Shown piece by piece: positions 1-22,277 of a stretch of DNA of 41,006 nt. The position numbers and the translations under genes are program-made. The stretch comes from Nitrospinota bacterium (GTDB lineage Bacteria > Nitrospinota_A > UBA7883 > JADGGD01). How positions within the stretch are numbered: the first letter of the stretch is position 1; each line of letters begins with the position of its first letter. The notes below the pieces were generated by a model. It ran no database searches. It worked only from the letters and a program-made list of their open reading frames with translations, and was not told the origin of the DNA. Location: contig JADGCD010000003.1 in the NCBI GenBank assembly GCA_015229165.1, positions 1 through 41,006 of the forward strand. The letters are read 5' to 3'.

Positions 1-245
1 AAGAGCCAGGCGGCCACCGGCGCTCCCGAGACCCCCATCGCCACGAATATGAGAATGAAACCGAGCAGGGAGAGGAGGGCGACGAAAATCCCTTGTTTCG
101 CCGCTCCGGCGGCGCCCTTCCCGTCGGCGCCCAACGCGAAACCGACGATCAGCGCAAGGAAAAAGGGAATGATCTGCATCAGGCAGAATATCCAGACGGA
201 GAAATAGTTCCCCACGGCGCCGAAGAATGCGTCGCTGCCGGTCAT
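1..245 (-). CDS. CcdA/DsbD-transmembrane-like cytochrome c biogenesis membrane protein (3' end outside window)
   Basis: Not in the ORF track. Manual translation from ATG 245 (ATGA overlap with the upstream stop): MTGSDAFFGAVGNYFSVWIFCLMQIIPFFLALIVG...LLGFILIFVAMGVSG. The hydrophobic pattern resembles the CcdA N-terminus (C-x4-P-x-L, then LGF..F.A.G). Confidence 0.6.
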   Translation of the reverse strand, partial: MTGSDAFFGAVGNYFSVWIFCLMQIIPFFLALIVGFALGADGKGAAGAAKQGIFVALLSLLGFILIFVAMGVSGAPVAAWL

Positions 246-829
246 GCCCCCTCTCCCGCCGACGGAGCCCCGAAAATGGTGTCGAGCCCGCCGGTCATCT
301 GCCCCCACGTCTCGATCTTGCCGACATGAATGAACCGGACGATCCCCCCACCATCGACAAAGATCGTGGTGGGGGTCACCTGCACACCGGCGGACTTGGC
401 GATATCTTCGCCCGCCTCGCTGGTGATGACCGGGAAGGCCAACGTATGGAGCCGGACGAACTGCTCCAACCGTTCGGGCTGATCCTGTATCCCAACCCCG
501 ACGACTGAAAGACCCCGGTCCCGGTACTCTTCCTCCGCCCTTTTCACCCACCCGATCGACTCGTGGGAGCAGGGACACCAGTTGGCGAAGAAGAAGTAAA
601 GGAGGGGCTTGCCCGCAAACGACGATCCCGTCAAGGAAACGCCCCCCCTGCCGCTGGCCTCGAAGGGGGGGAAAGGATCGCCGACCTTTAATGTTTCATT
701 AATCGATGCATCATTTGAGACGACGTAGTTGAACAGAATATTCAGGATCAGCGCCAGGGCGAGCAATAGAATGATCTGGTTGCGTCTGCCAAGGAGAAAC
801 GTCTCTCCTCCGGCCTGTTCGTCGCTCAT
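242..829 (-). CDS. Membrane-anchored TlpA/ResA-like thioredoxin-fold (redoxin) protein with atypical WCPCS site
   Basis: N-terminal TM helix, LKVGDPFPPF, GKPLLYFFFANWCPCS, cis-Pro motif VTPTTIFVD..G.VRF. Confidence 0.85.
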   Translation of the reverse strand: MSDEQAGGETFLLGRRNQIILLLALALILNILFNYVVSNDASINETLKVGDPFPPFEASGRGGVSLTGSSFAGKPLLYFFFANWCPCSHESIGWVKRAEEEYRDRGLSVVGVGIQDQPERLEQFVRLHTLAFPVITSEAGEDIAKSAGVQVTPTTIFVDGGGIVRFIHVGKIETWGQMTGGLDTIFGAPSAGEGA

Positions 830-878
830 CCTGTTTCACCGCCAGAAGGTTGTCGATACCGGCTCGCCGCCCGACCGG

Positions 879-1487
879 TCACGGCGCGGAAGGGGTTCCC
901 GTATTCCCGTCGGACTTGCCGAGCTGCTTCTGGAGCTCTTCGGCTCCGGACATGTGCCCCATTTTCAGCTTGTCCATCTTCATGAGAACCGATTCGATGG
1001 GGCGTTCGGCGACCGGCGTCTTGTAGAGGGCAAACAGCGCAGGATAGTCGCCGATCAGCTTTTTCATGTCCTCCTCCCGGAAGTCGGACTCCCAGTTCCC
1101 AACTAGTGCATTCCAGACTTGGGCGATGACCACCGCCTGCGCCTCCGTCACCCCGCGAAACTCCAGATCGGGGCGGGTCTTCCGGTAGTTCTGGACGAAG
1201 CTTTGCATGTGGGGAACCACCGCCACGAACGGCGCGCCGCACCGGGAGCAGTACATCTTGATCCGCTCCTCGGAATGGCACTGGGTGCAGACCTTCTTCG
1301 CCAGCGCATAGGCCTCCGTCGGCTGGTACTCGACATACCCGGACGCCTTCAGCCAATCGAGGGCTTTCGCCCGGAGCGGATTGTCGACATTGGCGACCAC
1401 CCCTAGAGCCACCGCAAACACAAGGGCGACAGTGATCGGGATGATTTTCCGCTTTCGATCAGAGGATGACGTTTCGTTCAGTTTCAT
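879..1487 (-). CDS. Membrane-anchored monoheme c-type cytochrome with additional CxxC
   Basis: N-terminal hydrophobic helix, CTQCH heme-binding motif, then YCSRCG and a downstream HM. Co-oriented with the TlpA-like and CcdA-like genes. Confidence 0.7.
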   Translation of the reverse strand: MKLNETSSSDRKRKIIPITVALVFAVALGVVANVDNPLRAKALDWLKASGYVEYQPTEAYALAKKVCTQCHSEERIKMYCSRCGAPFVAVVPHMQSFVQNYRKTRPDLEFRGVTEAQAVVIAQVWNALVGNWESDFREEDMKKLIGDYPALFALYKTPVAERPIESVLMKMDKLKMGHMSGAEELQKQLGKSDGNTGTPSAP

Positions 1488-1498
1488 TCCGTTTGAAG

Positions 1499-1516
1499 AA
1501 GCAGATTGCGTGCCAG
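1499..1516 (-). promoter_or_regulatory. sigma54 (-24/-12) promoter for the cytochrome c-TlpA-CcdA unit
   Basis: Minus strand reads CTGGCACGCAATCTGCTT, a GG-N10-GC close to the consensus YTGGCACG-N4-TTGCW. Confidence 0.75.
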
Positions 1517-1574
1517 CATGCCCACCACCCGAACGATTTCCGGGCAGTGCCCGCTCAGATCGCTTCCAACGCGG

Positions 1575-1591
1575 TTGGTATATTCCTTGCT
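1575..1591 (+). promoter_or_regulatory. sigma54 (-24/-12) promoter for the USP-radical SAM operon
   Basis: TTGGTATATTCCTTGCT with GG(1577-78)-N10-GC(1589-90), 55 nt before ATG 1646. Confidence 0.65.
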
Positions 1592-1645
1592 CCCCCCTGT
1601 CGCCAGATGCAATGCGGGTTTTTCAGGAGAGGGGCATTACGACCT

Positions 1646-2830
1646 ATGTACCGAAACATTCTTGTGACCCTGGACAACTCCCGCTACTCGCTCTGGGGGC
1701 TGGAGCGGGCGCTGGAGCTGGCGACGAATTTCAAGGCGACACTCGTGGGGAACCATGTCTACGCCTCCCGGCTTCACGAGAAGCGCTTCGTCCAGATGGA
1801 GCCGGGACTGCCGGCCCAGTATCAGGAGCCTGCGGAGCTGCAGAAGCAGCGGGACATCCACGCCGAGCTTATCGAACGGGGATTGCAGGTCATCTCCGAT
1901 TCCTACCTCGACGTCTTCCAGAGCCGGTGCGACTCGAGCGGCGTCGCCTGCTCCCGCAAGATGATGGAGGGGAAGAACTATCTTGAACTGGTGAGAGACA
2001 TCGACCAGTCGTCCTACGACCTGGTCGCCATCGGGGCCAGGGGGCTGGGCGAGGTGGAGGACGCGGCCCTCGGATCGGTCTGCGAGCGGGTGACGCGGCG
2101 GATTTCCATCGACGCGCTGGTCATGAAAAACGACAAGCCGCTGCGCGGCGGGCATGTGGTGGTCGGTGTTGACGGCAGCGAACAGTCGTTCGCCGCCGTC
2201 GCCTCGGCCATCGCCATGTGCAAGCACATGGGGTGCCGCATGACACTCCTTGCGGTCTTCGATCCCTTCTTCCATTACAAGGCGTTCGACACCATCGCCG
2301 AAGTCCTCTCGGAGGAGGCGGGAAAGACCTTCCGGTTCGACGAGCAGGAGAAGCTCCACAAGGAGATCATCGACTCGGGGCTCGAGAAGATCTACCGGGA
2401 CCATCTGGATACCGCCGCGCTCATGGCGAAGAAGGAGGGGATCGAGGCCGCCTCCGAATTGCTGGCGGGCAAGCCGTACCACGCGATTCTTCAGTGGATC
2501 GGGGACCGGGAGGTTTCCCTGCTCGCCCTCGGCAAAGTGGGCGCCCACTGCGTGGACGAACAGGATATCGGCTCAAACACCGAAAAGCTGCTCCGCTACG
2601 CCCCCTGCAACGTCATGCTGGTCAGCCGGAAGGTCAAGCCCGATGACGACGCCGACATGCCGTTGGCCGAGCTGAACTGGACCGACGAGGCCCAGGAGAT
2701 GCTGATGCGGGTTCCGGGCTTCGTCCGGAACATGGTCCGGGGACACATGGAAAAGAACGCCCGCAACGCCGGGGCCGACACCATCACCGGGGCGATGATG
2801 CGGGAGGCCCGCGAAAAGATGGGAATGTGA
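1646..2830 (+). CDS. Tandem universal stress protein with C-terminal PCP_red (BchB C-terminal-like) domain
   Basis: Start moved to MYRNILVTLDNS (AGGAG upstream). Two USP domains (GSVCERVTR, VVVGVDGSEQS, GSNTEKLLRYAPCNV) and a C-terminal WTDEA..L.RVPGFVR..VR...E motif. Confidence 0.88.
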   Translation: MYRNILVTLDNSRYSLWGLERALELATNFKATLVGNHVYASRLHEKRFVQMEPGLPAQYQEPAELQKQRDIHAELIERGLQVISDSYLDVFQSRCDSSGVACSRKMMEGKNYLELVRDIDQSSYDLVAIGARGLGEVEDAALGSVCERVTRRISIDALVMKNDKPLRGGHVVVGVDGSEQSFAAVASAIAMCKHMGCRMTLLAVFDPFFHYKAFDTIAEVLSEEAGKTFRFDEQEKLHKEIIDSGLEKIYRDHLDTAALMAKKEGIEAASELLAGKPYHAILQWIGDREVSLLALGKVGAHCVDEQDIGSNTEKLLRYAPCNVMLVSRKVKPDDDADMPLAELNWTDEAQEMLMRVPGFVRNMVRGHMEKNARNAGADTITGAMMREAREKMGM

Positions 2831-2831
2831 C

Positions 2832-4691
2832 ATGACGTTCGTCCCCTACGCCGTCTCGTGGAACCTGACCGGCCGCTGCAATCTGGCGTGCGACCATTGC
2901 TACCTCGACGCCAACGCCCGCACCTGCGGCGACGACGGGGAGCTGACCACGGAGCAGGCGATCGACACGGTGGGCCAGATCGCCGCGCTAAACCCCGAAT
3001 CGGTCCTCATCCTGACCGGGGGGGAGCCGCTCTTGCGCCACGACCTCGACCGGATCGTCGGGGCGGCCGCGGCGGCCGGGTTGATGGTCGTTCTGGGAAC
3101 CAACGGCGTCCTGCTCGACCGGAGCGCCGCACGGCGGCTCAAAGAGGCGGGACTCGCCGGTGTCGGCGTCAGTATCGATTCGCTCGACCCCCTGATCCAC
3201 GACACCTTCCGGCGGAAGCGCGGAGCCCTTTCGGCGTCCATGCAGGGGCTCGCTTTCGCCCGCGAGGAGGGGTTAAGCGTCCAGGTGCAGACCACCGTCA
3301 TGCGGTCGAACATCCGGGACATCCCTCTCATCGCCCAGTGGGCCCACCATATCGGCGCGAAGGTCTTCAACCTCTTCTTCCTCGTCTGCGTCGGACGGGG
3401 GGAGCAGATGACCGACATTTCGCCGACGCAGTACGAAGAGACGCTGCGCTGGGCCGCCTCGGAGAAGGACCGCTTTCCCGGCATGATGGTCCGCCCCAAA
3501 TGCGCCCCCCACTTCAAGCGAATCCTCCACCAGAACAACCCGGACGACCCGCTCCTCTCCACCTATGTCGCCGCCTGCCGGGCCGGAACCCACTACCTGC
3601 GGATCACCCCGCACGGCGCGGTGACCCCCTGTCCCTACATGGAGACCCAGGCCGGCTCGCTGACGCGGACCTCGTTGTCCGCCATATGGGCCGACGCGCC
3701 GGAGTTGACCCGGTTCCGCCGCCCCGATTACGAAGGGAAATGCGGACGGTGCCGCTACCGGCTCCTCTGCGGCGGTTGCCGCGCGCGGGCGCTGGCGACG
3801 GTCGGCGACCCGATGGGGGAAGACCAGTGGTGCGTTTACGAGCCGGTCGGCGTCGAGGCGCCCATCACCACCGTCGATACCGACGCCAAATTCGGCGTAA
3901 AAGGTGAAAGCAGCCTGGCGTGGGACGCCGACGCCGAGGCGATACTCGGGAAGATTCCCTTTTTCGCCCGCCCGATGGTCCGGATGGGGGTCGAGCGCCG
4001 GGCGATGGCGGAGAAGGTCGAACGAATCACCCTCGAATACTTCCGGCGCGTCTCCCCCTCCCCCCGGATGTTCGGCGACGCGGCGCCCCCCTCCCCCGTC
4101 ACGGTCGAAACGGCGACGGACGCCGCCGAAATTCCGTGGACGCCGGACGCGAAGGAGCGGGTCTCCCATGCGCCCGAGTTCGTCCGCCCCGGCATCCCGA
4201 AGCTGATGCAGAAACGGGCGTGCGAACGGGGCAAAACGGTCATCGACAGCGCGTTCCTGAGCGAAATCCGGGACGAGTCAATGATGCTGGCCTCCCGGCG
4301 GATAAAGAAGCTCGGAATCGACGAGCTTTCCATGGACGCATGGGACGCGGCGCGGAAGAAGCTTTTCGCCAAATCCCCTGAGAAGATTCAGGTCATCGAT
4401 ACCATCACAGAGCTGCTCAACGGCCGCGAACAGAAGAACGGACCTATCGTCGAACGTTTTTCCGGCTACATGGCCGACTCCCTGGGGAAAAAGCTCGGGT
4501 GGTCGAAAGAAGCGCGCCTGCGCATGGAGCGTGCGCCCGCCTTCGTCCGGGAGAAGGCGGCCCGGGCGGTGGAAGGATTCGCCCGGGAGAACGGATACCG
4601 GATCGTGAACGAAGAAGCATTGGACAAAGCGCTGGCGCAGATGCCTTTTGGCGCCATGACCGGCGCGTCGCCGTCGCCCGACCGGACGTAA
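2832..4691 (+). CDS. Radical SAM/SPASM protein, AhbD/NirJ-like, with three C-terminal PCP_red domains
   Basis: CNLACDHC, GGEPLLR, GTNG, FFLVCVGRG, PKCAPH; SPASM cysteines CRAG..CPY..CGRC..CGGCRARA..DQWC; three W-x3-A-x6-P-x-F-x-R repeats. Confidence 0.88.
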   Translation: MTFVPYAVSWNLTGRCNLACDHCYLDANARTCGDDGELTTEQAIDTVGQIAALNPESVLILTGGEPLLRHDLDRIVGAAAAAGLMVVLGTNGVLLDRSAARRLKEAGLAGVGVSIDSLDPLIHDTFRRKRGALSASMQGLAFAREEGLSVQVQTTVMRSNIRDIPLIAQWAHHIGAKVFNLFFLVCVGRGEQMTDISPTQYEETLRWAASEKDRFPGMMVRPKCAPHFKRILHQNNPDDPLLSTYVAACRAGTHYLRITPHGAVTPCPYMETQAGSLTRTSLSAIWADAPELTRFRRPDYEGKCGRCRYRLLCGGCRARALATVGDPMGEDQWCVYEPVGVEAPITTVDTDAKFGVKGESSLAWDADAEAILGKIPFFARPMVRMGVERRAMAEKVERITLEYFRRVSPSPRMFGDAAPPSPVTVETATDAAEIPWTPDAKERVSHAPEFVRPGIPKLMQKRACERGKTVIDSAFLSEIRDESMMLASRRIKKLGIDELSMDAWDAARKKLFAKSPEKIQVIDTITELLNGREQKNGPIVERFSGYMADSLGKKLGWSKEARLRMERAPAFVREKAARAVEGFARENGYRIVNEEALDKALAQMPFGAMTGASPSPDRT

Positions 4692-4732
4692 TCACCGGCG
4701 CCTACCGACAAACGTACAACGAGGAACAGATC

Positions 4733-5326
4733 ATGACCATTCGCAGGACTTCTTCACGGCTTCAGCCGCACCCCTTGGCGACCCGTCTGCTGATCGGCGG
4801 TTTCGCATCGCTGATAACGCTTCTGCCGACAGCGGCGTCGGCGGAGCATCAGGTGGCCGACGAACATGAAGTCCATTTCGACAGCGCCACCGAAAAGCAG
4901 ATCGGCAAAGAAACGTTGCACGAGCTGTCGCAGTTCTTCCACGATGCGGAAATCGCATTGGAGACGGAAGACATGGACGCCATCATGGCCCTCTACTCGG
5001 ACGGTTACGCCAACGGCCCTCACAACAAGGCGTCGCTGATCCCGATCTGGAAGCGGATCTTCCGCGACTTTGACAACCTCTACACCAAACACAACATGCG
5101 CGTCGTCACCGAGTCGGGCGATAGTCCGGTGATGATCATCCGGTGCAGCGGCATCCTGATGGGGACCCCCAAGGGGGAGTCGAATGCGGTCGCCATTGCG
5201 CTCGACTACTGGATCAACAACGACCACATCCTCGTGAAGGAAAAAGGGACGTGGCGTCTCGTCGGCACCACCGGAAAAGAGCAGAAACGGTTCGGGTTCG
5301 ACACGCCGATCCATCCGCTTTTCTGA
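4733..5326 (+). CDS. Exported protein, probable NTF2/SnoaL-like fold
   Basis: GAGGA RBS before ATG 4733; signal-like segment ending ASA; ALETEDMDAIMALYSDGY and LVKEKGTWRLV are typical of NTF2-like proteins. Confidence 0.65.
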   Translation: MTIRRTSSRLQPHPLATRLLIGGFASLITLLPTAASAEHQVADEHEVHFDSATEKQIGKETLHELSQFFHDAEIALETEDMDAIMALYSDGYANGPHNKASLIPIWKRIFRDFDNLYTKHNMRVVTESGDSPVMIIRCSGILMGTPKGESNAVAIALDYWINNDHILVKEKGTWRLVGTTGKEQKRFGFDTPIHPLF

Positions 5327-5347
5327 ACCGAAACAAAGGGGGCCGCA

Positions 5348-6061
5348 ATGAACATCCGGTACACACCCGCTCTTGCGCTGATGGCGGTCATCGCAGCGGG
5401 CTCTTCCGACGTGGTCGCCGCCAAGGATCACGGACTGGCCACGTTCAGGGACAAGCTGAGCTACAGCATCGGCGCCCAGATCGGCGGCAACCTGAAGCGG
5501 GACAAGCTCGATCTGGAGATCGAAACGGTTCTGCGCGGCGTGAAAGACGCCTTCCTTGCCAAGGGATCCGTCCTGACGACGGAGGAGATGCAGGAGACGC
5601 TCGTCGCCTTCCAGCAGCGTCAGGAGAAGGATAAGGCGGCATGGCGCAAGTCCGAAGGGGAGAAGAACCGGCGCGCCGGGAAGGCGTTCCTCGAAAAGAA
5701 CCGCGCCGCCACGGGGGTAATCACCACCGCCAGCGGGTTGCAGTACAAGGAACTAAAGAAGGGAAAGGGGCCGCGTCCCGGCCTCGCCGACGAGGTGAAA
5801 GTCCATTACCGGGGTTCGCTCATCGACGGGACGGAATTCGACAGCTCCTATCCGGCGGGCGAACCGGCGGTCTTTGGGCTCAACGGGGTCATCCCCGGAT
5901 GGGTCGAAGGACTGCAATTGATGCCGCTGGGCTCCACCTACCGGTTCTTCATCCCCCCCCATCTCGCCTATGGCGACCGGGGGGCGGGGACTACCATAGG
6001 CCCAGACGCCACCCTGATATTCGACGTGGAGCTTCTGGACATCCGGACGGCCAGGAACTGA
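5348..6061 (+). CDS. fkpA: FKBP-type peptidyl-prolyl isomerase (FkpA/Mip-like)
   Basis: Signal peptide, KLSYSIG (FKBP_N), TTASGLQY, VHYRGSLIDGTEFDSS, VIPGWVEGL, IPPHLAYG, LIFDVELL. Confidence 0.93.
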   Translation: MNIRYTPALALMAVIAAGSSDVVAAKDHGLATFRDKLSYSIGAQIGGNLKRDKLDLEIETVLRGVKDAFLAKGSVLTTEEMQETLVAFQQRQEKDKAAWRKSEGEKNRRAGKAFLEKNRAATGVITTASGLQYKELKKGKGPRPGLADEVKVHYRGSLIDGTEFDSSYPAGEPAVFGLNGVIPGWVEGLQLMPLGSTYRFFIPPHLAYGDRGAGTTIGPDATLIFDVELLDIRTARN

Positions 6062-6086
6062 TCGCGACCGACGCAAGGAGCCACGC

Positions 6087-6506
6087 ATGACCAGTACTCT
6101 CGCCCGGACCGTGACGTCGCTGGGTCTTTTCCTGCTCATCTGCGCCCCCCCGGCGGCGCGCGCCGCCCACGACGGACTCACGACCTACGTCTTCTACTAC
6201 CACGCAGACTGGTGAACCGCCTGCGGGAAGATGGGTCCCATCTTCGAACAGTTGAAAAGGGAAAGCGCCGACCCCGGGGTCGTGTACGTCAGGTTCGACC
6301 TGAGCGACGACCTCGGCGCGGCTATCGCCAAGGAGGTAGCCGCCGGATACGGCGTAGCGGATATTTTCGCCTACGCTCGGCGGACCGGTTTTATTGTGCT
6401 GGTGGACGCCAAGACGAAAAAGGCTGTCGAGACGCTGGACATCACCATGAGCGCCGACCGCATGCGGCAGGCGATCAGGGCCGCCGCCCGTCGGTCGGGC
6501 GCATGA
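6087..6506 (+). CDS. Exported thioredoxin-fold selenoprotein (UxxC; in-frame TGA at 6213-6215 read as Sec)
   Basis: AAGGAG RBS at 6075-6080, ATG 6087, signal peptide (..AARA), then FYYHADW-TGA-TAC-GKMGPIFEQL, in frame with the track ORF 6231..6506. The TGA sits at the first Cys of the Trx WCxxC motif. Confidence 0.85.
6227..6245 (+). promoter_or_regulatory. Bacterial SECIS-like stem-loop
   Basis: Perfect 8-bp stem GAAGATGG/CCATCTTC with apical GGUC. The stem starts 11 nt and the loop about 19 nt after the UGA, consistent with bacterial SECIS geometry. Confidence 0.75.
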
Positions 6507-6525
6507 CGAGAGGGGAGACCGGGGC

Positions 6526-7560
6526 ATGAGCGGGATGCGGCGCTGGCTGCCGGCTTTTGCGGCGGGGTTTGTCATTCTCGCAGCGACGCCCGCCGCCCGG
6601 GCCGAGACGCGCGAGTTCCGCATGACTATCGAGCAGACCACCATCACCGTGGCGCCCGACCTCGATTACGCGGTCTTCGGCTACAACGGCCAGACGCCAG
6701 GGCCGCTGATCCACGTCCGGCAGGGGGACGACGTGGTCGTCCATGTCACCAACAACACCCTGATGCCCCATACCATCCACTGGCACGGCGTCTACCAGAC
6801 CGACAACTGGCGTCTCGACGGGGTCCCCGGCGTCACCCAGGAGGAGATCCGCCCCGCCGGGGGAACCTTCACCTACCGGTGGAAGGCGGAGAAAAGCGGG
6901 TCGCTCTGGTACCACTGCCACGTCAACGTCAGCGAGCATGTCGCCATCCGCGGGATGTGGGGGCCTATCGTGGTCGATCCCCTCACGCCGACCCCCGAGG
7001 AGAAGCGGGTCACCAAAGAGGCGCTCTTTATGCTCTCGACGTGGGACAGCCACTTCGCCGGGATGTGGGGTCAGGGAGGCGCCCCCCACGACATGCCCGA
7101 TTACTTTTCGGTCAACGCCAAATGCTTTCCGATCACCCACCCCCTTCGGGTGAAGAAGGGGGATGTGGTCCGCTTCCGCTTCTTCGCCGTCGGCATGTCG
7201 ATTCACACACTCCACCTCCACGGCCACGACATGCTGGTCACCCACAAGGACGGGACGCCGCTTCCGCAACCGTACTGGGTTGACACCCTGATGATTGGTC
7301 CGGGGGAGCGGTACGACGCCATCGTCGAGATGAACAATCCCGGACTCTTCATCTTTCACGACCATGTGGACTCCCACATGACCAACAACGGCAAGGACCC
7401 GGGAGGTCCGATCACCATTATCGAGTACGACGGGGTTAAGCGCCCCGATTTCTATATCTGGAAAGACAAGGAATACGACGCCAACTTCTTCTATTCGGAA
7501 TCGATGCGCCGAGGCTACGGCCTGTTCGAATGGAGCGGTTTCAAAGGAAAGGGACGGTAA
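6526..7560 (+). CDS. Two-domain multicopper oxidase, type C (Nitrosomonas blue copper oxidase/NcgA-like)
   Basis: Signal peptide. Domain 1 has HTIHWHG and WYHCHVNVSEHVAIRGM (T1 Cys/His/Met); domain 2 has HTLHLHGH and FHDHVDSH (no Cys). Confidence 0.9.
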   Translation: MSGMRRWLPAFAAGFVILAATPAARAETREFRMTIEQTTITVAPDLDYAVFGYNGQTPGPLIHVRQGDDVVVHVTNNTLMPHTIHWHGVYQTDNWRLDGVPGVTQEEIRPAGGTFTYRWKAEKSGSLWYHCHVNVSEHVAIRGMWGPIVVDPLTPTPEEKRVTKEALFMLSTWDSHFAGMWGQGGAPHDMPDYFSVNAKCFPITHPLRVKKGDVVRFRFFAVGMSIHTLHLHGHDMLVTHKDGTPLPQPYWVDTLMIGPGERYDAIVEMNNPGLFIFHDHVDSHMTNNGKDPGGPITIIEYDGVKRPDFYIWKDKEYDANFFYSESMRRGYGLFEWSGFKGKGR

Positions 7561-8603
7561 TGTTCACGGAGTACATGAGCCCGGTCATCTTGCGACCGGA
7601 AGGATCGCGCACGACCCTGCTGACGGCGGCGCTCCTGGCGCTGGTTGGCCACGGATACGCCTCAAACGCTTCCGCCGCGGCGCCCGGCGTGCGGACCGTC
7701 GATCTGGTCTACGCCGTCGAGGTGACGGGCGCCCCGGTCGGCGCGGGGCCGGTCACCCTCTGGCTCCCCGTTCCCGGCGACGACGAGGACCAGACGACGC
7801 TCGACACCCGCATCGTCTCCCCCTACCCGGTGACGCTGACCAAAGAGACGGAGTACGGCAACCGGATGCTGGTGTTGACCACCGACCGTCTGGACAAAGA
7901 TTCGTTCGCCATCGAGGTCACCTACCGCATCCGCCGGACGGAACACCGGACCGATTTCGCCGCGACCGACGTCCGCGAATCCGTTAATCCCCGTTTCCGC
8001 GCCCCCAGCGCCCATGCGGTCATGAACGACGCGGTCCGCGGCATGGCCAAGGAGGCCGTCGGCGACCGGACTGACCCGCTGGATAAAGCCCGGGCGATCT
8101 ACGACTACGTTCTGGCCCACATGCGCTACGACAAAAGTGTGCCGGGGTGGGGCAAGGGGGACGTGAACCGCATCTGTCTCGCCATCGGCAAGGGGGAGAG
8201 CGGAGCGGGCAACTGCACCGACTTCCATTCGCTCTTCGCCTCGATGATGCAGGCGGAAGGGATTCCGGTGAAGTTCGAGATGGGCTATCCCCTGAAACCG
8301 GGGGAGGAGATGACCACGCCCAATCGGGGCGGCTACCACTGCTGGGCCCGCTTCTGGATCGAAGGAAAAGGGTGGATTCCCGTCGACATCTCCGAAGCGG
8401 CCAAAGATCCATCGAAGCGGGACTACTACTTTGGCGCGCTCTGCGAAAATCGTGTCCGGTTCAGCGTAGGCCGGGATATTGAACTGATTCCGCCGCAGAT
8501 CGGTGAACGGCTCAACTTCTTTGGACCCGACCCTTATATAGAGATCGGCGGCAAGCCGTTCGACGGTTTCTCCCGGACCGTCGCTTATAGAGACGTCGAG
8601 TGA
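7560..8603 (+). CDS. Exported transglutaminase-like (cysteine protease fold) protein
   Basis: ATG overlaps the upstream stop (TAATG); signal-like segment; triad GNCTDFHSLF / YHCWA / WIPVD. Start could be 7575. Confidence 0.85.
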   Translation: MFTEYMSPVILRPEGSRTTLLTAALLALVGHGYASNASAAAPGVRTVDLVYAVEVTGAPVGAGPVTLWLPVPGDDEDQTTLDTRIVSPYPVTLTKETEYGNRMLVLTTDRLDKDSFAIEVTYRIRRTEHRTDFAATDVRESVNPRFRAPSAHAVMNDAVRGMAKEAVGDRTDPLDKARAIYDYVLAHMRYDKSVPGWGKGDVNRICLAIGKGESGAGNCTDFHSLFASMMQAEGIPVKFEMGYPLKPGEEMTTPNRGGYHCWARFWIEGKGWIPVDISEAAKDPSKRDYYFGALCENRVRFSVGRDIELIPPQIGERLNFFGPDPYIEIGGKPFDGFSRTVAYRDVE

Positions 8604-8901
8604 TCCGGATCGTTCTTCATCGCGGCGTGCGGTTTGCGCCGCAACGGAAAGTCAACAACGCAGTCAAACAGGACGACCTTCACTCTCCCCGCCGCATTGG
8701 ACAGGTTAGCGGCGGCTCATCGAAGGTTTTCACCGTCCATTCAGTAAATACCTACCGTTTGCCCTATGGAGATTTTCCAAGGCGGAAGTGAGCTGAAACG
8801 AACAAAGCGCTTTATCGGATATTTTATACCCATCATTGACTGACAAGTCGACGCCAAAAGCTTTTCCACCCTGTTGTCGTCCACCCATTCCGAAGACACA
8901 C

Positions 8902-8937
8902 CTCCTGACATGTCAGCCCGCTCCTGACATGTCAGGA
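8902..8937. promoter_or_regulatory. Tandem palindromic operator (2x CTCCTGACATGTCAG), candidate bEBP enhancer
   Basis: 15-bp direct repeat at 8902-8916 and 8921-8935, each containing the palindrome CTGACATGTCAG. The second extends to the 16-bp TCCTGACATGTCAGGA. Confidence 0.65.
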
Positions 8938-9034
8938 AGATTCAGTCAATAAGCCTCGACATCTCTCCCCTCCTTTCAGTCGCAATCGACACCCTATCAG
9001 CCGCATGGGGCAATTCACCCTGACAGGCGACCAT

Positions 9035-9050
9035 CGGCGTACTAAATGCA
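9035..9050 (+). promoter_or_regulatory. sigma54 (-24/-12) promoter candidate
   Basis: CGGCGTACTAAATGCA with GG(9036-37)-N10-GC(9048-49), about 100 bp downstream of the tandem palindrome. Confidence 0.55.
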
Positions 9051-9203
9051 GTTACTCACGGTGTCGACTGTGTGACTGTCGAGCGTTTTCGCCAGCAGTC
9101 ACCAGGCGCAAATGAGAGGAGGAGAAGAGACCGTGACGGATTCCTTGGTCAATGCGTAGGTAAACAACGCAAATGTTTAGATGTCATCAGGCAGGAGGAC
9201 GCA

Positions 9204-9539
9204 GTGATACTAGCGACGTCGAAAATGATCGTAAAGGCGGAAAGACGGAGTGAGCTCCTGGAAGCGATGATGGGGATGCTGGAACCGGTCCGGGTCGAAA
9301 AAGGGTGTCTTGGCTATTCCCTCTGCGAAGACGTGGAAAACAAGAACGGGTTTCTTCTGCTGGAAGAATGGGAGACACAGGTTGATATCGAAAGACATAT
9401 TGCCCGTGAAAACCAGCGGCGTCTCCTTTCGCTCATGGACCTACTCAGCGAAGAACCGGTGATCCGGTATTACACCGTAACGAAAACGGCCGGAATGGAC
9501 CTCATAAAGCGGGTGTTCGAATCGCCCGATTCCCTTTAG
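9204..9539 (+). CDS. ABM-family (putative quinol) monooxygenase
   Basis: GGAGG RBS then GTG 9204; RVEKGCLGYSL..D.EN...LLEEWET....H is the ABM signature. Confidence 0.82.
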   Translation: MILATSKMIVKAERRSELLEAMMGMLEPVRVEKGCLGYSLCEDVENKNGFLLLEEWETQVDIERHIARENQRRLLSLMDLLSEEPVIRYYTVTKTAGMDLIKRVFESPDSL

Positions 9540-9594
9540 GAGAAACCCGATGACCATGACGGATATGCAATTACTCCGGAAAGGAGCATTCACG

Positions 9595-11508
9595 ATGAGA
9601 AGAATCAAAGCCTATACAGGTCTTGGCCTGTTCTTGACGCTCGCGCTCGCCATCGCGTCAGGTTGCGGCACAAATGGCGAGACCGGAAAGTGGCTGGACG
9701 GCTCCCGAGCCCCCGCGCCCACCGTGTCATTCACCCTGCCGCTCAACCTGGCGGTCAATGTGGCGACAAACACGCTGCTCACCGCCACCTTCAGCGAGGA
9801 GATGGACCCCGAGTCCATCAACACGACAACGTTTACCCTGATGAACGGCTCCGAAGTCATTTTGGGGACGGTCGGCTATGCGGGGGTGACTGCGGTCTTC
9901 ACCCCTGCGGTCGCGCTTTCGGACAGCACCACCTACACGGCGACGATCACGGTCGGCGCCAAATCGCGGGCCTATGGAACCAATCTCGATAACAACTACG
10001 TCTGGACCTTCACCACGGCGACTCCCGGCGGCGACATCCCGCCCGATATCACCCCGCCCATTCCCGGCCCCAATCCCGGTCCCTCGCCGGACCTGAGAGC
10101 CCCCCGGGTCACCTCCACGGTCCCCGCCAATCTGGCCACGGAGGTAGCGATCAATACGTCCATCATCGCGACGTTCAGCGAGGCGATGAACCCGCTGTCG
10201 CTTACCACCGCTAGCTTTACCGTGAAAAAGGGACTGGTCACGGTTCCGGGTACGGTTCTCCCCGTGGGGTTGACCGCGGTCTTTACTCCGAACGCCCCGC
10301 TTGACTCGAGCGCGGTCTATACCGCCACGATCACGACGGTCGCCGAGGATCTGGCCGGGAACAACCTAGCGGCCAACTATGTGTGGACCTTCACCACCGG
10401 CGCGCTGGTCGATATCATTCCCCCCACGGTGATCCTGACCGCCCCGCTGAACGGCGCCACCGGAGTGGCGATCAACACCAACGTCGTCGCGACCTTCAGC
10501 GAGGCGATGGCGCCCCTTTCCCTGACGCCCCTTACGTTTACGTTGCACAAGGGACTGGTTTCCATCGGGCATACGGTTCTTCCGCTGCTCGACGTGGCGA
10601 CCCTGAACCCCAGCGCCAACCTTGAGTACGACACGCTCTACACGGCCACCGTCACCGTCGGCGCAAAGGATCTGGCGAACAATGCGATGGTGGCGCCCTA
10701 TGTCTGGACGTTCAGGACCGCAGCGGCCCCGCCCGTCCTCTTCAACCTTGGGATTCTGGCGCCCTACGGCATCGCTTCGGCTGGTGGCGTCACCACCGGC
10801 GCGGCCCCGGTCAAGATCAACGGGAGCACGGTGCTGGATCCGCTCGACCAGTGCAACGCGGTAGCCGTCGGGGCCGCCGATGACTTCGGCCTCTGCGGTG
10901 GAAACCCGCCGCTGAACAACCTCCCGGGGGTCAGGGACTTTGTCATCACCCCCACTCACTCGGCGCCGGGGCCGGTCACTGCGGCTGCGGTGAAGGCTAC
11001 CTTGCTTACCAAGTGGGGAAACCTGTCTCCGGCCGGTCACCCGGGCGGGACGGTGCTGGGATGTGGAACCATCGGTAGCGCCGGAGGCGCGGGCGCCCTC
11101 ATCGGGTGCAACGGCAACTTCACGCTTCCCCCCGGAGTCTATATCTCCCAGACCTCATCGTCGATCGGTGTGGCGGGAAGCCTGGTTCTCGATGGCGGCG
11201 GCGATGCGAACGCCACCTTCATCTTCCAGGCGCCGTCATCGTTGACCACGGCGCCCAATACGACCATCACCTTGCAGAACGGGACCAAGGCCTCGAACGT
11301 CTGGTGGTACGTGGGGAGCTCGGCGACGCTCGGCTCGAATACCGCCTTTAAGGGAAACATCCTGGCTTCCGCCGCCATATCGATGGGAACCACCGCGACT
11401 TCGTGCGGGCGGCTCCTGTCGGGCGCGAGCGGAGCGGGGGCGTTCACCTTCCTGGGGAATACCGTGTCGGTGCCTGGCCATCCCAACGCGCCGGCCGGGT
11501 GCAACTAG
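9595..11508 (+). CDS. Lipoprotein with three Ig-like (Big_5) domains and a C-terminal DUF3494 ice-binding-like beta-solenoid
   Basis: AAGGAG before ATG 9595; lipobox ASGC; three repeats of P.V....P.N.A..VA.NT...ATFSE.M...YVWTF; C-terminal LPPGVY..LDGGGDANATFIFQ..ASNVWW.VGSSATLG..F.GNILA..GRLL. Confidence 0.88.
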   Translation: MRRIKAYTGLGLFLTLALAIASGCGTNGETGKWLDGSRAPAPTVSFTLPLNLAVNVATNTLLTATFSEEMDPESINTTTFTLMNGSEVILGTVGYAGVTAVFTPAVALSDSTTYTATITVGAKSRAYGTNLDNNYVWTFTTATPGGDIPPDITPPIPGPNPGPSPDLRAPRVTSTVPANLATEVAINTSIIATFSEAMNPLSLTTASFTVKKGLVTVPGTVLPVGLTAVFTPNAPLDSSAVYTATITTVAEDLAGNNLAANYVWTFTTGALVDIIPPTVILTAPLNGATGVAINTNVVATFSEAMAPLSLTPLTFTLHKGLVSIGHTVLPLLDVATLNPSANLEYDTLYTATVTVGAKDLANNAMVAPYVWTFRTAAAPPVLFNLGILAPYGIASAGGVTTGAAPVKINGSTVLDPLDQCNAVAVGAADDFGLCGGNPPLNNLPGVRDFVITPTHSAPGPVTAAAVKATLLTKWGNLSPAGHPGGTVLGCGTIGSAGGAGALIGCNGNFTLPPGVYISQTSSSIGVAGSLVLDGGGDANATFIFQAPSSLTTAPNTTITLQNGTKASNVWWYVGSSATLGSNTAFKGNILASAAISMGTTATSCGRLLSGASGAGAFTFLGNTVSVPGHPNAPAGCN

Positions 11509-11675
11509 AGGTTGAAGCGCCGTCGATGGAAGCTGGCGAAAGGAGCGGGTCGACAAAACGGTCGGCCCGCCCCCACCGCCCGAAGATGGCGGACTGAATG
11601 AAGACGCAAACGCCGGTTCCGGGCCGCTCGCCGGAAGAGTGAATGCATAACGCGGTTGTTGAAGGAGAAGAGATC

Positions 11676-12764
11676 ATGAAGAGAACTGAACGAATCGGGG
11701 CGCTGGCCATCGCGATGGCGCTGATGCTGCCCGGCGTATCCCAGGCGGAGATCAAGGCGAAATCGTGGGAGATCAGCCCCTTCGTCGGCTACAACTGGTT
11801 CGAGGCCGACCAGAATCTGAAGAACCAGGCCCTCGTCGGGGGGCGGCTCGGCTACAACTTCACCCGGCGCTTCGGGCTGGAGCTGGCGGTGGAGTATCTT
11901 GACACCACTCTTACGGACAAGGACAAAACCCGGTCGCAGAAGGGGCAGTTCGGAACACCCCATGAGTCGGTCAACATCACGTTTTACCATCTGGACGCGG
12001 TGTTTCATATCAGGCCGGACGGCGCTTTCAACCCGTTCCTGCTGGCCGGATTCGGCGGCGTCCATTACCGCCCCAGCATTTCGGTCGATGGGGTGGACAT
12101 GTCGGCGTTCAACTTCGGGCTCGGCGCCAAATGGGCCCTGACCGAAAACGTCGCTCTTCGCGGCGACCTGCGGGACAACATCGTCTCCGAAGTTATCCAG
12201 GAGGCGTATCACAACTATGGCGCGACGCTGGGTCTGACCTTCTCGTTCGGTGGTAACGATGACAAAGGCAAGCGCCAGGTGGCGGCTGCTCCGCTCAAGC
12301 CGGTCCCCGTCCGGCGAGCGCCGGTGATCATTCCGGTGGCGGAGCCGGAGGCGGAAAAGAAGGTGGTCGCCGTCGCAAAGCAGGCTGAGCCGGAAGAGGA
12401 AGTGGTCGTTCTCGCCTTTGAGGATATCCACTTCGACTTCGACAAAGCCACCCTTACCGAAGAGGCCCGCGCGATCCTGCGGCGCAACTTCCAGGTCCTC
12501 CGGGAAAACCCCAAGGCGCATGTGCGCGTCGCCGGATACACCTCCGCTTCGGGTACGGACGAGTACAACCAGAAGCTGAGCGAGCGGCGGGCCACCGCCG
12601 TGCGGACGTTCCTGGTGGAGGAAGGGATCGCCAAGCCCGACCGGCTGACCAAGATCGGCTATGGAGAGGACCACCCCGCCGAGTACGAATCGGCGCCCGG
12701 AAAGATTTACTCGAAAGCGGCCATGGCCAACATGCGGGTCCTTTTCGAGATCATCGTGGAGTGA
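11676..12764 (+). CDS. OmpA-family outer membrane protein (beta-barrel plus peptidoglycan-binding domain)
   Basis: Signal peptide, barrel strands (GGRLGYNF, FNFGLGAK), DIHFDFDKATL, YNQKLSERRATAV, IGYGE. Confidence 0.92.
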   Translation: MKRTERIGALAIAMALMLPGVSQAEIKAKSWEISPFVGYNWFEADQNLKNQALVGGRLGYNFTRRFGLELAVEYLDTTLTDKDKTRSQKGQFGTPHESVNITFYHLDAVFHIRPDGAFNPFLLAGFGGVHYRPSISVDGVDMSAFNFGLGAKWALTENVALRGDLRDNIVSEVIQEAYHNYGATLGLTFSFGGNDDKGKRQVAAAPLKPVPVRRAPVIIPVAEPEAEKKVVAVAKQAEPEEEVVVLAFEDIHFDFDKATLTEEARAILRRNFQVLRENPKAHVRVAGYTSASGTDEYNQKLSERRATAVRTFLVEEGIAKPDRLTKIGYGEDHPAEYESAPGKIYSKAAMANMRVLFEIIVE

Positions 12765-14665: not shown

Positions 14666-16393
14666 ATGACTTGTACTAACAATGACATACCCGGTAATTA
14701 CCCATTTGTCGAAATGATAAATATGCTACACTCGGAGTGTGGCGAACGCTCGCAGAAACTCTTGGGCGGCAGAAAGCGCGGGGATATGGCCAGACGAGGG
14801 GGCGACGAACTTGACACGATCGCCCAACATTACGACCGAAACGTTGCGACCGATCACGACGACATCGGCGCCGCGCCACGCCCGTTGCTGTCGGATATCT
14901 TTATGACGGATCGGATGGGAGAGTCCCGCCACGAGTTGGTGACCCGCTTGTCAGACGCAGGCGAGCGGGAGCGCCAGTTGCGCGACGCCGTCGCCGTCGC
15001 CGACGCGTCACGCGACAAATATCTCGCCTTCTACAATCATGCCCCGGTCGGATTTCTGACCCTCGACGACGCGGGGGTCGTTCAGGACGCCAACCCGGCG
15101 GCGGCGCGCCTCTGCGGCATGCCGACCCAGCGCCTCGCCAGACGGCCCTTCGTCCAACTCCTCTCTCCGGACGAACGCCCCCTTTTCGAATCGAAGTTCG
15201 ATCAACTCCGCGCCGACCGCACATCGGCCACGCTCGATGTTCACCTGACCGGCGGCGACAACGCGGCGCTTTTGGTCCATCTGGAGATCGACGCCACCTA
15301 TCGATCCGGCGGGGAATCGCCCGACTTCCACATGGTGATGCAAGACGTCACCCCGGCGCGGGACGCCGACGAACTGATACGCAAGACCTTTGCGGAAGTG
15401 AGCCTGCTTGAAAGCAAGTTGAAACAGGAGGGCCGCTCCCTGCCACGCGATATCGGCCAGGAGCATTCGCACAAAGACATCGTCGGCAACAGCGAGGCCC
15501 TGCGCGCCGTTTTGGAAATGGTGGAGCAGGTCGCCCCCACCGACAGCCGGGCCCTGATCCTGGGGGAGACCGGCAGCGGCAAGGAGCTGCTGGCGCAGGC
15601 GATCCACAATCTCAGCGCCCGCCGCGACCGGCCGATGATCACGGTCAACTGCGCCGCCCTTCCGCCGACGCTCATCGAAGGCGAACTGTTCGGCAGGGAG
15701 AAGGGGGCCTACACCGGCGCCCTTTCAAAACAGTTGGGACGGTTCGAGCTGGCGCACCGTTCGACCATTTTTCTGGATGAAATCGACAGCGTCCCCCTCG
15801 ATTTGCAGGCGAAATTCCTGCGGGTTCTGGAGTGCGGCCAGTTCGAGCGGCTGGGAAGCCCCCATGCGGTCAAGGTGGATGTCCGGGTCATCGCCGCCTC
15901 CAACCGAGACCTTGCGTTGGCGGTTCAGGAAGGGACGTTCCGCGAAGACCTTTACTACCGGCTGAACGTTTTCCAGATACAGGTTCCCCCGCTTCGGGAG
16001 CGGCGTGAAGACATCATGCCGCTGGTCTGGTCTTTCATCGACTATTTCGGCAAGCGGATGGGAAAGCGTATCGAGTCGATCCCGAAACAGACGGCGCTGG
16101 CGATGCAAACCTATCCGTGGCCCGGGAACATCCGCGAGTTGAAGAACATGGTGGAGCGGGCAATGATCATCTCCACCGGGCCGCAACTGCACCTGGATGT
16201 CCCGCTGGTCGTCCGGGCGGCGTCCGGTTCGCGGACGCTGGACGAAATGGAGCGGGATCATATCATCGACGCCCTCGCCACCTGCGGAGGGCGCGTCAGC
16301 GGAACGGGGGGCGCCGCCGAGATATTGGGAATCAATCCGAAGACGCTCGGCTCCCGGATGGTCAAACACGGGATCAAGCGGAACAATACGTAA
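14666..16393 (+). CDS. PAS-domain sigma54-dependent transcriptional activator (bEBP)
   Basis: PAS (YNHAPVGFLTLD), Walker A GETGSGKE, ELFG..KGAYTGA, FLDEI, DLYYRLNVF, WPGNIREL, Fis-type HTH. True start is probably downstream of 14666. Confidence 0.92.
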   Translation: MTCTNNDIPGNYPFVEMINMLHSECGERSQKLLGGRKRGDMARRGGDELDTIAQHYDRNVATDHDDIGAAPRPLLSDIFMTDRMGESRHELVTRLSDAGERERQLRDAVAVADASRDKYLAFYNHAPVGFLTLDDAGVVQDANPAAARLCGMPTQRLARRPFVQLLSPDERPLFESKFDQLRADRTSATLDVHLTGGDNAALLVHLEIDATYRSGGESPDFHMVMQDVTPARDADELIRKTFAEVSLLESKLKQEGRSLPRDIGQEHSHKDIVGNSEALRAVLEMVEQVAPTDSRALILGETGSGKELLAQAIHNLSARRDRPMITVNCAALPPTLIEGELFGREKGAYTGALSKQLGRFELAHRSTIFLDEIDSVPLDLQAKFLRVLECGQFERLGSPHAVKVDVRVIAASNRDLALAVQEGTFREDLYYRLNVFQIQVPPLRERREDIMPLVWSFIDYFGKRMGKRIESIPKQTALAMQTYPWPGNIRELKNMVERAMIISTGPQLHLDVPLVVRAASGSRTLDEMERDHIIDALATCGGRVSGTGGAAEILGINPKTLGSRMVKHGIKRNNT

Positions 16394-19255: not shown

Positions 19256-19263
19256 GAGACCTC

Positions 19264-20724: not shown

Positions 20725-21013
20725 CGGCTCACATGGCGGTTCAGGGGCTTATGATAGCACCGAAACAAAAGCCGGGGCCGCCGAAGCGCAGCCTTGCGGC
20801 CGTTCTCTTCCCCACCCGTCGATGAAGAGCCGCGTCTTCGCACCCCCGGTAGTTGAATTGATTTCCGTTCCGGGGGTACTTTGCCGCTCATCCTGGATGG
20901 GTGAAGCCCCCCTTCACCGAAACCCAAGAAGCGGGCGTAGACCGCGGCGCTACACGCTACCGGTAAGGCGTCGAGCCGTTGGCGAGACCCTCGCGCCGCC
21001 CCCGCGCAGGGGG

Positions 21014-22138: not shown

Positions 22139-22277
22139 TGGCCCTCTCCTCATTGTGTGTGCCGCGCCTCCGATGGGGACGCCTCGTGCCGATAGGGTCA
22201 ATTCTCTCCCGTTCCGCAAGGATGTCAACGGAATACGGATACCGTTGTCCCCTTCCCCCCGGCGGGTATAATGCCCC

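Follow-up and report, generated by a model that had tools for sequence, protein, structure and literature searches.

What brings a radical SAM enzyme of the haem-synthesis type together with divergent cytochrome and thiol-redox genes, a selenoprotein and a copper oxidase? The question is raised by positions 1-8603 of the stretch of DNA analysed here (the window), 41,006 nucleotides of contig JADGCD010000003.1 from a Nitrospinota bacterium, in which seven plus-strand genes diverge from three on the minus strand. The sequence-only reading had taken all ten for one dedicated system. We find three separate modules: a core pair of genes for a universal stress protein (USP) and a radical SAM protein (rSAM), a leftward thiol/cytochrome cluster and a five-gene tail. 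The window is best explained as carrying the right-hand end of an island of respiratory genes, about 36 kb long, around a cytochrome bd-like oxidase of the OR-N type; the core pair, the thiol/cytochrome cluster and the transglutaminase-like (TGase-like) gene of the tail are all found in or near this island. The source genome (G000) is a metagenome-assembled genome, 73.5% complete in 346 contigs. Gene content was surveyed across 33 Nitrospinota species genomes (G numbers), and a one-genome-per-species scan for the rSAM gave 355 confirmed places, of which the best 80 loci (L numbers) were analysed by tblastn, clustering and Pfam. Genes were called from a listing of open reading frames (ORFs) and domains assigned by Pfam and NCBIfam profile searches, by which the gene list and domains of the sequence-only reading proved correct. 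The core pair and its predicted promoter are as follows.

1576-1591, plus strand: predicted sigma-54 -24/-12 motif TGGTATATTCCTTGCT of the USP/rSAM operon, 55 nt ahead of the USP start
1646-2830, plus strand: USP-USP-PCP_red protein (Usp 121.8 bits in two stretches; PCP_red 55 bits)
2832-4691, plus strand: AhbD/NirJ2-like radical SAM/SPASM protein with three C-terminal PCP_red domains (Radical_SAM 87, SPASM 39.1 and PCP_red 105.2 bits, the last in three stretches)

The assignment of the rSAM to the AhbD/NirJ type, already suggested by the first reading, was upheld by hidden Markov model scores: its best NCBIfam families are NirJ2 (TIGR04055, 294.5 bits) and AhbD (TIGR04545, 277.4 bits and 279.5 in a second scan), neither match reaching the cut-off of 500, which for AhbD is the equivalog cut-off. 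The protein aligns with these models over their full 339 positions, and both the radical SAM cysteines (C16, C20 and C23, CX3CX2C) and those of the SPASM cluster (C249, C267, C304, C307, C313, C316 and C334) are invariant in 16 homologues. It shares its radical SAM domain and SPASM cysteines with AhbD and NirJ2 but differs from them in some 280 extra residues that hold three PCP_red repeats. The PCP_red domain (PF08369) is the C-terminal module of subunit B of protochlorophyllide reductase (DPOR; BchB/ChlB), whose C-terminal helix covers the bound tetrapyrrole. Both members of the pair exceed the Pfam cut-off of 32.5, and the four copies match the Pfam model as well as the last 57 or so positions of the NCBIfam BchB models. 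In contrast to DPOR subunit B, the window proteins have no nitrogenase-like catalytic body and no BchL/N partners, and PCP_red is here fused to a USP and an rSAM in non-phototrophs. ATP-binding USPs carry the nucleotide motif G-x2-G-x9-G-[ST]; in the window protein the corresponding residues of both halves (G130, G133, G143 and S144; G296, G299, G309 and S310) are invariant in 24 sequences, and the tandem USP probably binds nucleotide.

The window rSAM is a paralogue of AhbD and not the housekeeping enzyme itself. The genome's own AhbD is encoded on another contig (C77:10572-11597, 498.1 bits), immediately behind an AhbC-like radical SAM gene, and shares 34% identity with the window protein; an AhbD match of at least 417 bits is present alongside the PCP_red-bearing paralogue in 26 of the 33 phylum genomes. 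For these reasons the objection that the rSAM might simply be the housekeeping AhbD, which the sequence-only reading had raised against itself, does not apply. What sets the window enzyme apart from AhbD and NirJ2 is also that the genome has a true AhbC/AhbD pair in addition to it, and that it is partnered with USP-PCP_red. On C77 (6000-14000; L091), genes for a chlorite-dismutase-family protein, the AhbC-like radical SAM and AhbD stand in a row, a set of housekeeping haem genes.

The pair is the conserved core of the region, judging from the homologues and loci compared. The rSAM paralogue was found in 29 and USP-PCP_red in 30 of the 33 phylum genomes, and USP-PCP_red lies directly upstream of the rSAM in 23 of the 80 loci, all from Nitrospinota and a few records titled Nitrospirae or Nitrospirota. 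The radical SAM, SPASM and PCP_red architecture recurs in 118 of the best 120 rSAM homologues listed, whose named sources are Nitrospinota and anammox Planctomycetota (Brocadia, Kuenenia, Scalindua, Jettenia and Loosdrechtia) and whose database labels read 'radical SAM protein' or carry automatic haem-synthase or PqqE names; the three added PCP_red domains are kept across phyla. A complex prediction of rSAM residues 1-600 with USP-PCP_red, run without controls, scored 0.00 against a mark of 0.32 and is evidence neither way. Some further observations touch this pair. At L008, from the same genus, the rSAM match (10001-11805) falls into two overlapping pieces in different frames, the called ORF being 452 amino acids, a probable frameshift or assembly error. 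In the source genome, contig C319 has a PCP_red-like stretch (L088, G000:C319, around 5313-5543, minus strand) that closely follows a MoaA gene. At L016, L017, L023 and L112 13863-15128, an Mrp/NUBPL-type P-loop ATPase gene is followed by one for a small PCP_red protein (134-149 amino acids), near USP/rSAM.

What would such a pair serve? The OR-N family has been defined within the cytochrome bd superfamily (bioRxiv 10.1101/2021.01.16.426971) and its bd-like oxidases are conserved across Nitrospinota (PMC10839748), and a conserved gene region with nitrite oxidoreductase (NXR), bd-like oxidase and cytochrome c, including a multicopper oxidase, is described for Nitrospina, Nitrospira and Kuenenia (Lucker et al. 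2013, PMC3578206); as far as the accessible text of these papers goes, the function, cofactors and assembly of the oxidase are called enigmatic or unconfirmed (PMC3578206, PMC10839748). The same combination of bd-like oxidase, cytochrome c and cytochrome c-EB_dh occurs on contig C346 of the source genome, in G024 and in anammox bacteria, but the accessible portions of those papers do not name a USP-PCP_red/rSAM pair as part of the region.

The link between the pair and this oxidase is drawn because of an anammox operon, proximity in several Nitrospinota genomes, joint absences and one decaying copy. USP-PCP_red orthologues (45-49% identity) are present in five of five anammox genomes, away from their rSAM gene, and in all three neighbourhoods annotated (Brocadia, Kuenenia and Scalindua) USP-PCP_red ends a syntenic operon that encodes bd-like oxidase subunit I, several cytochromes c and cytochrome c-EB_dh; in Brocadia the oxidase operon is followed by NxrC-like, NxrB-like and NarJ-like genes. 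Within the phylum, a bd-like oxidase was found in 29 of 33 genomes. Oxidase, USP and rSAM are all absent from G028, G007 and G014 (91, 91 and 82% complete), which represent three genera. In G009 no oxidase was found, and the pair (G009:C46:10445-12912) carries in-frame stops, one TAG in the USP and one TGA and one TAA in the rSAM, which is also truncated; these stops could reflect gene decay after oxidase loss.

The physical arrangement points in the same direction. In G024, of the same genus, the oxidase gene lies 15.5 kb from the rSAM on one contig, where the oxidase operon comes first, then genes for a kinase, a sigma-54 regulator, B12-binding and URO-D/RACo proteins and a PAS kinase, next the thiol/cytochrome cluster and last the USP/rSAM operon with its tail. 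Three contigs of the source genome (C346, C180 and C280) are colinear with this island, and on C346 the same oxidase/cytochrome set stands beside genes for a histidine kinase and a sigma-54 response regulator. The B12-binding and URO-D/RACo genes (L111 15393-18560; L089 1-3167) encode fusions of the corrinoid methyltransferase-activation type and separate the sigma-54 two-component system from the thiol/cytochrome cluster. Other layouts recur elsewhere in the phylum. In G018 the pair is 9.2 kb from the oxidase operon, with DUF420, HmuY-like and CcmH genes and a TGase-like gene (51% identical) around or between them. In G021 it lies 5.4 kb upstream of a molybdoenzyme/FeS/bd-like/cytochrome c operon and is divergent from genes for an Mrp/NUBPL ATPase and a small PCP_red protein, and in G022 it is 6.6 kb from a bd-like gene, the bd-like gene in both genomes being of a more distant type (35-37% identity). 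A family of the thiol/cytochrome cluster that we call c18 is encoded 10-13 kb from a bd-like gene on the same contig in nine genomes. The locus comparison bears out the conserved haem-themed neighbourhood that had been foreseen for the rSAM, with DUF420, HmuY-like, CcmH and Mrp/NUBPL plus small PCP_red proteins as its haem-themed members elsewhere, and a tie to a haem respiratory enzyme stands in the form of the bd-like oxidase, from operon layout, shared absences and island position.

Several points weigh against this link. The oxidase lies within 10 kb of the rSAM at just five of the 80 loci, all from Scalindua, and no bd-type oxidase was present among 88 neighbouring ORFs of 15 Nitrospinota/Nitrospirota loci. 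Nearly all phylum genomes have both partners, so that the co-occurrence comes down to three joint absences and one decaying copy, and the genomes are related, so that such counts are not independent. G031 (89% complete, 490 contigs) has a bd-like gene (43%) and a USP near a contig end, and no rSAM was found there. SPASM enzymes modify peptides more often than tetrapyrroles, and the Pfam PCP_red region corresponds to the lid helix of BchB only by inference.

With these points counted in, we propose, at about an even chance, that the pair is a cytoplasmic haem-tailoring or haem-delivery module for the bd-like (OR-N) oxidase. USP-PCP_red and rSAM-3xPCP_red would form a two-gene cytoplasmic unit behind a sigma-54 promoter. 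The rSAM would act on an iron tetrapyrrole of the sirohaem-dependent (Ahb) pathway, perhaps coprohaem, haem b or a relative, and might remodel its propionate-type side chains or just make haem b. The PCP_red domains may hold, shield and hand on the reactive substrate or product, with the USP as a partner or gate that would couple this step to the nucleotide or energy state, and the haem would then pass to the bd-like oxidase and its cytochromes as clients. The leftward genes and the tail would support the exported parts of the complex from the periplasm, as electron carriers and as helpers in folding and in disulfide or selenosulfide redox chemistry. A bolder form of the proposal, which we regard as improbable on present evidence, makes the pair the dedicated haem maturase of OR-N oxidases, making or inserting a haem other than plain haem b, with the Sec-thioredoxin, the TlpA/CcdA/CcmH-like chain, the unusual cytochromes (CXXCH plus CXXC; CX3CH) and the TGase-like protein as the periplasmic half of the same assembly line.

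An alternative that we hold to be unlikely, on a par with this bolder form, is that the rSAM has no special client and is a second AhbD isoenzyme, expressed conditionally, say at low oxygen, to supply the whole cell with ordinary haem b, with the USP as a stress switch. Its nearest families are after all NirJ2 and AhbD, with all radical SAM and SPASM cysteines intact, and its near-universal presence in the phylum is housekeeping-like. USP proteins encoded beside electron-transport clusters are reported to rise at low oxygen in Nitrospira marina (PMC8115632), which would suit a stress switch if they belong to the family discussed here. Against this reading, the rSAM is lost or decayed together with the oxidase in four genomes, all of which retain an AhbD match of at least 468 bits. 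The place of the USP inside the oxidase operon of anammox bacteria and the conservation of three extra PCP_red domains across phyla argue against it as well.

Another possibility is that the rSAM acts as a SPASM maturase on some peptide or protein encoded in the island, with PCP_red as a protein-binding domain. Most NCBIfam SPASM families are peptide maturases, the weaker matches of the rSAM include PqqE, the mycofactocin maturase and sactipeptide maturases, and its top sequence match in the PDB is PqqE (E 1.2e-20). Set against this, the tetrapyrrole families score 294 and 277 bits and the peptide maturases at most 110, PCP_red is otherwise known from a tetrapyrrole enzyme, and the window has no space for a small precursor ORF, the gaps flanking the rSAM gene being 1 and 41 nt. 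We consider this reading quite improbable.

The haem-module proposal places the pair behind its own promoter, and the sigma-54 signal read from the sequence proved real: TGGTATATTCCTTGCT is the sole match to the sigma-54 pattern in the 41 kb, where 0.02 would be expected. It has GG at -24 and GC at -12 with the correct spacing, lies a short way upstream of the USP gene, and has a counterpart ahead of the USP in 7 of 23 related loci; activators are encoded at 14666-16393 and on C346. On these grounds it is the predicted sigma-54 promoter of the USP/rSAM operon. Two further elements were considered.

1500-1515, minus strand: second sigma-54-like motif TGGCACGCAATCTGCT, directed towards the leftward genes, a weak candidate found with a relaxed pattern
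14666-16393, plus strand: PAS/sigma-54 activator/HTH enhancer-binding protein, a candidate regulator (Sigma54_activat 222.5 bits, with PAS and HTH_8)

The relaxed pattern behind TGGCACGCAATCTGCT has three matches in the whole window, and L008 and L015, two relatives with the same divergent layout, show no similar motif in the corresponding intergenic region. The exact sigma-54 pattern had no match on C346, nor had the relaxed scan in the intergenic region between the histidine kinase and bd-like genes of that contig or in the matching stretch of G024. The enhancer-binding protein at 14666-16393 may regulate the operon and is put forward as a candidate from its domains. Scans of positions 1-9600 for terminators and sigma-70 promoters returned 9 matches against 8.1 and 1 against 2.0 expected by chance.

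The three leftward genes that diverge from the USP/rSAM operon were confirmed as a cytochrome c candidate, a TlpA-like and a CcdA-like gene.

3-245, minus strand: CcdA-like thiol-reductant transporter, N-terminal fragment cut by the contig start (58% identity to the CcdA-like gene of L008)
242-829, minus strand: TlpA/ResA-like membrane-anchored thiol:disulfide oxidoreductase with WCPC (Redoxin 61.9 bits, AhpC-TSA 56.1 bits)
879-1487, minus strand: membrane-anchored monohaem cytochrome c candidate, 202 amino acids with a single CTQCH, first gene of the leftward cluster

In relatives the cluster runs on in the order cytochrome c, TlpA-like, CcdA-like, c18, CcmH-like, FGE-like, CX3CH protein and second redoxin, where the CcmH-like member carries a Cys-rich motif, the FGE-like protein belongs to the FGE-sulfatase family, and c18 and the CX3CH protein are membrane-anchored; the eight genes together have so far been seen only in Nitrospinota. 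A 2.8-kb contig of the source genome (C180) holds c18, CcmH-like, FGE-like and CX3CH genes in the order expected if it abutted the left end of the window. The CcdA-like fragment has no Pfam match of its own; its full-length orthologue L022:12387-13214 scores just below the DsbD_TM cut-off (26.1 bits, E 6.4e-6, cut-off 27.1), and the redoxin reaches 65.3 bits against the ResA subfamily, under the cut-off of 170.

The gene at 879-1487, for which there was no Pfam match, is a candidate class I-like cytochrome c on its invariant residues, its model and modest structural matches. C67, C70, H71, C80, C83 and M94 are invariant in 48 homologues, giving a CXXCH and an extra CXXC, and M94 would be the distal haem ligand. 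The predicted model (mean predicted local distance difference test score, pLDDT, 85.2) has class I cytochromes c in the top rows of VIA-align at modest scores, 3a9f_B with Z 5.4 (root-mean-square deviation (rmsd) 3.1, 68 aligned) and 2blf_B with Z 5.1 (rmsd 2.9, 64 aligned); Foldseek returned no match to it at E <= 0.001. The c18 (69 clusters) and cytochrome (64 clusters) families are without any Pfam domain, and their named members are nearly all from Nitrospinota and annotated as hypothetical. A function for c18, including a copper-chaperone reading, was not supported: its model (pLDDT 86.5) matched only generic beta-sandwich domains, those of M1 aminopeptidases and OST subunits, at a template modelling (TM) score by query of at most 0.50.

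The cytochrome and TlpA genes adjoin the rSAM in six of the 80 loci (L008, L015 and L021-L024), five of which, all except L024, also have the CcdA-like gene, and at L019 the cytochrome gene alone stands by the rSAM at a contig end. With c18 as a marker (23 of 33 genomes), 22 genomes have both c18 and the rSAM. The two are within 4 kb in seven (G024, G023, G008 and G010-G013) and, across a contig break, by inference in the source genome, giving 8 of 22 adjacent; one further genome separates them by 23 kb, 13 have them on different contigs, and seven genomes have the rSAM without c18. From these counts the link between cluster and core is recurrent, in divergent as well as co-directional layouts, and not obligatory. 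The nearest known counterpart of the cluster is the ResA/TlpA-CcdA branch that reduces thiols in System II cytochrome c maturation and in the maturation of copper centres, with which it shares a redoxin, a DsbD_TM-type protein and a CcmH-like protein beside c-type cytochrome candidates. The window cluster differs in its extra proteins, the Nitrospinota-only beta-sandwich protein c18, the FGE-like and the CX3CH proteins, and no CcsA/CcsB match was found among the cluster members scanned in L022, a search that did not extend to the rest of the genome. The cytochrome, CcdA-like and c18 orthologues of L021-L023 have His/Met-rich tails or linkers, for example HDHSMHDHS; such motifs are often tied to copper binding.

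The tail completes the plus-strand genes.

4733-5326, plus strand: predicted exported NTF2-like (SnoaL/DUF4440-like) protein, 197 amino acids (ESM Atlas score 0.97, TM 0.70-0.76)
5348-6061, plus strand: FkpA-type periplasmic FKBP peptidyl-prolyl isomerase (FKBP_N 91.5, FKBP_C 95.3 bits)
6087-6506, plus strand: predicted exported thioredoxin-like selenoprotein with W-U-T-A-C, TGA at 6213-6215 being read as U
6227-6245, plus strand: hairpin like a selenocysteine insertion sequence (SECIS), with an 8-bp stem and GUC loop, beginning 14 nt past the UGA
6526-7560, plus strand: two-domain laccase-like multicopper oxidase (MCO) with Cu-oxidase_3 and Cu-oxidase_2 and full-length PDB matches
7560-8603 (alternative start 7530), plus strand: predicted exported TGase-like protein (Transglut_core 83.5 bits)

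The tight packing noted at first sight holds, the seven genes being separated by 1, 41, 21, 25 and 19 nt and the last two overlapping. So do the export-like signals on the last five of the seven proteins, read by eye from the translations as a hydrophobic N-terminus followed by an Ala-rich cleavage-like motif. Among the 80 loci, FkpA, Sec-thioredoxin, MCO and TGase-like genes follow the rSAM only at L008 of the same genus, and NTF2-like homologues near the rSAM were seen only at L008 and L024. The NTF2-like protein had no Pfam match, and the FKBP scores 177.2 bits against NF008602, under the cut-off of 198.

The selenoprotein, also proposed from the sequence, is genuine on the evidence of its codon conservation. 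The TGA takes the first Cys position of the thioredoxin CxxC, and the same-genus orthologue (L096) reads ADW*PAC; at L007, where a third homologue immediately precedes the USP on the opposite strand, the reading is ADW*PPC. All seven of the 33 phylum genomes that have a homologue carry exactly one in-frame TGA, with conserved coding on both sides. The SECIS-like hairpin is shared, at an identical offset, by the window and L096; its folding energy is unexceptional, with z-scores of -0.97 and -2.2, and its stem falls within conserved codons. The source genome has SelB above the cut-off (346.2 bits), while SelD scored below its cut-off and tRNA-Sec was absent among 39 tRNAs in this 73.5% complete assembly.

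The MCO is, by its sequence matches, an ordinary member of the solved two-domain laccase type. Residues 27-342 match PDB 2zwn ('two-domain type laccase', E 1.9e-155) and 3g5w ('Multicopper oxidase type 1', E 4.6e-116) over the full length, and the 79.7 bits against NirK (TIGR02376) do not reach the cut-off of 296.3; the difference from that type lies in the position of the gene, which in the window's genus has shifted to behind the Sec-thioredoxin in the rSAM operon. Five of the 33 phylum genomes have the MCO. G021 and G022 carry it on another contig than the rSAM, and G014 has the MCO without an rSAM gene; no FKBP, Sec-thioredoxin, NTF2-like or TGase homologue was found near it in the fetched stretches of these three genomes. 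In G021 (L100, G021:C4, 9663-17468) two cytochrome c genes come after it, then genes for a NirK-like two-domain copper protein and for CusB/CusA-like efflux, a cluster that we take to resemble the ncgABC-nirK operon of Nitrosomonas europaea. The TGase-like gene is present in 13 of 33 genomes, and in G016, G029 and G018 a distance of 0.8-5 kb separates its orthologues (at least 53% identity; 51% in G018) from the bd-like oxidase gene. A TGase-like gene two downstream of the rSAM in anammox bacteria was considered as a shared partner and dropped, its BLASTP E value to the window's protein being 0.87.

These distributions weigh against the claim with which we began, of a single periplasmic pathway uniting all ten genes in the building or use of a modified haem/copper centre. 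The close spacing behind one sigma-54 promoter, the identical order in the same-genus genome, the second arrangement at L007 with the Sec-thioredoxin beside USP/rSAM, the recurrence of the TGase-like gene in the oxidase island and the His/Met-rich tails on some leftward-cluster orthologues would all fit such a pathway. However, the full set is confined to the window's genus (2 of 33 genomes), the MCO, Sec-thioredoxin and TGase-like genes each have the narrow spread given above, the MCO is found apart from the rSAM and in other company, and seven genomes keep the rSAM without the cytochrome/TlpA/CcdA cluster; we regard a single pathway as very unlikely. Of the conserved neighbourhood for which the sequence-only reading had asked, the USP/rSAM pair is conserved and the leftward cluster recurrent, but the order of the tail is a feature of the genus. 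Because their distribution is patchy, the periplasmic genes appear to be lineage-specific additions to the same island with no fixed pathway. That the pair's role is unrelated to the oxidase and their closeness a historical accident would agree with the housekeeping flanks of most Nitrospinota loci and is just as doubtful, as the link recurs in varied arrangements, within three families of the phylum as well as among anammox bacteria, and the genes are jointly absent.

Beyond the operon, the 470-nt gap after the TGase-like gene contains the palindrome CCTGACATGTCAGG twice in tandem (8901-8939), which looks like an operator site. Positions 9072-11508 encode an ABM-domain protein (antibiotic biosynthesis monooxygenase fold) and then a 652-amino-acid exported protein with three Big_5 Ig-like domains and an ice-binding-like domain. 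Three long, very GC-rich ORFs (579, 486 and 457 amino acids) on the minus strand at 17678-22387 have no Pfam match.

We found no description of the USP/rSAM pair, or of PCP_red joined to a radical SAM enzyme, in a literature search whose coverage left out subscription journals and some supplements, and PF08369 came up only in three unrelated surveys; the phrase 'radical SAM' is absent from the accessible text of PMC3578206, bioRxiv 10.1101/2021.01.16.426971, PMC10839748 and PMC8115632. We therefore rate the pair as a known kind of enzyme (AhbD/NirJ) in an unstudied and testable role, and the ten-gene 'system' as a composite. The pair extends the AhbD/NirJ enzyme group by a new domain architecture and suggests a wider role for PCP_red outside chlorophyll synthesis, and the tail documents a family of periplasmic UxxC thioredoxin selenoproteins in Nitrospinota. 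OR-N oxidases are found also in Nitrospira and anammox bacteria, the drivers of nitrite oxidation and anammox, and an enzyme pair that is lost together with the oxidase offers a concrete handle on the cofactor content and assembly of this oxidase.

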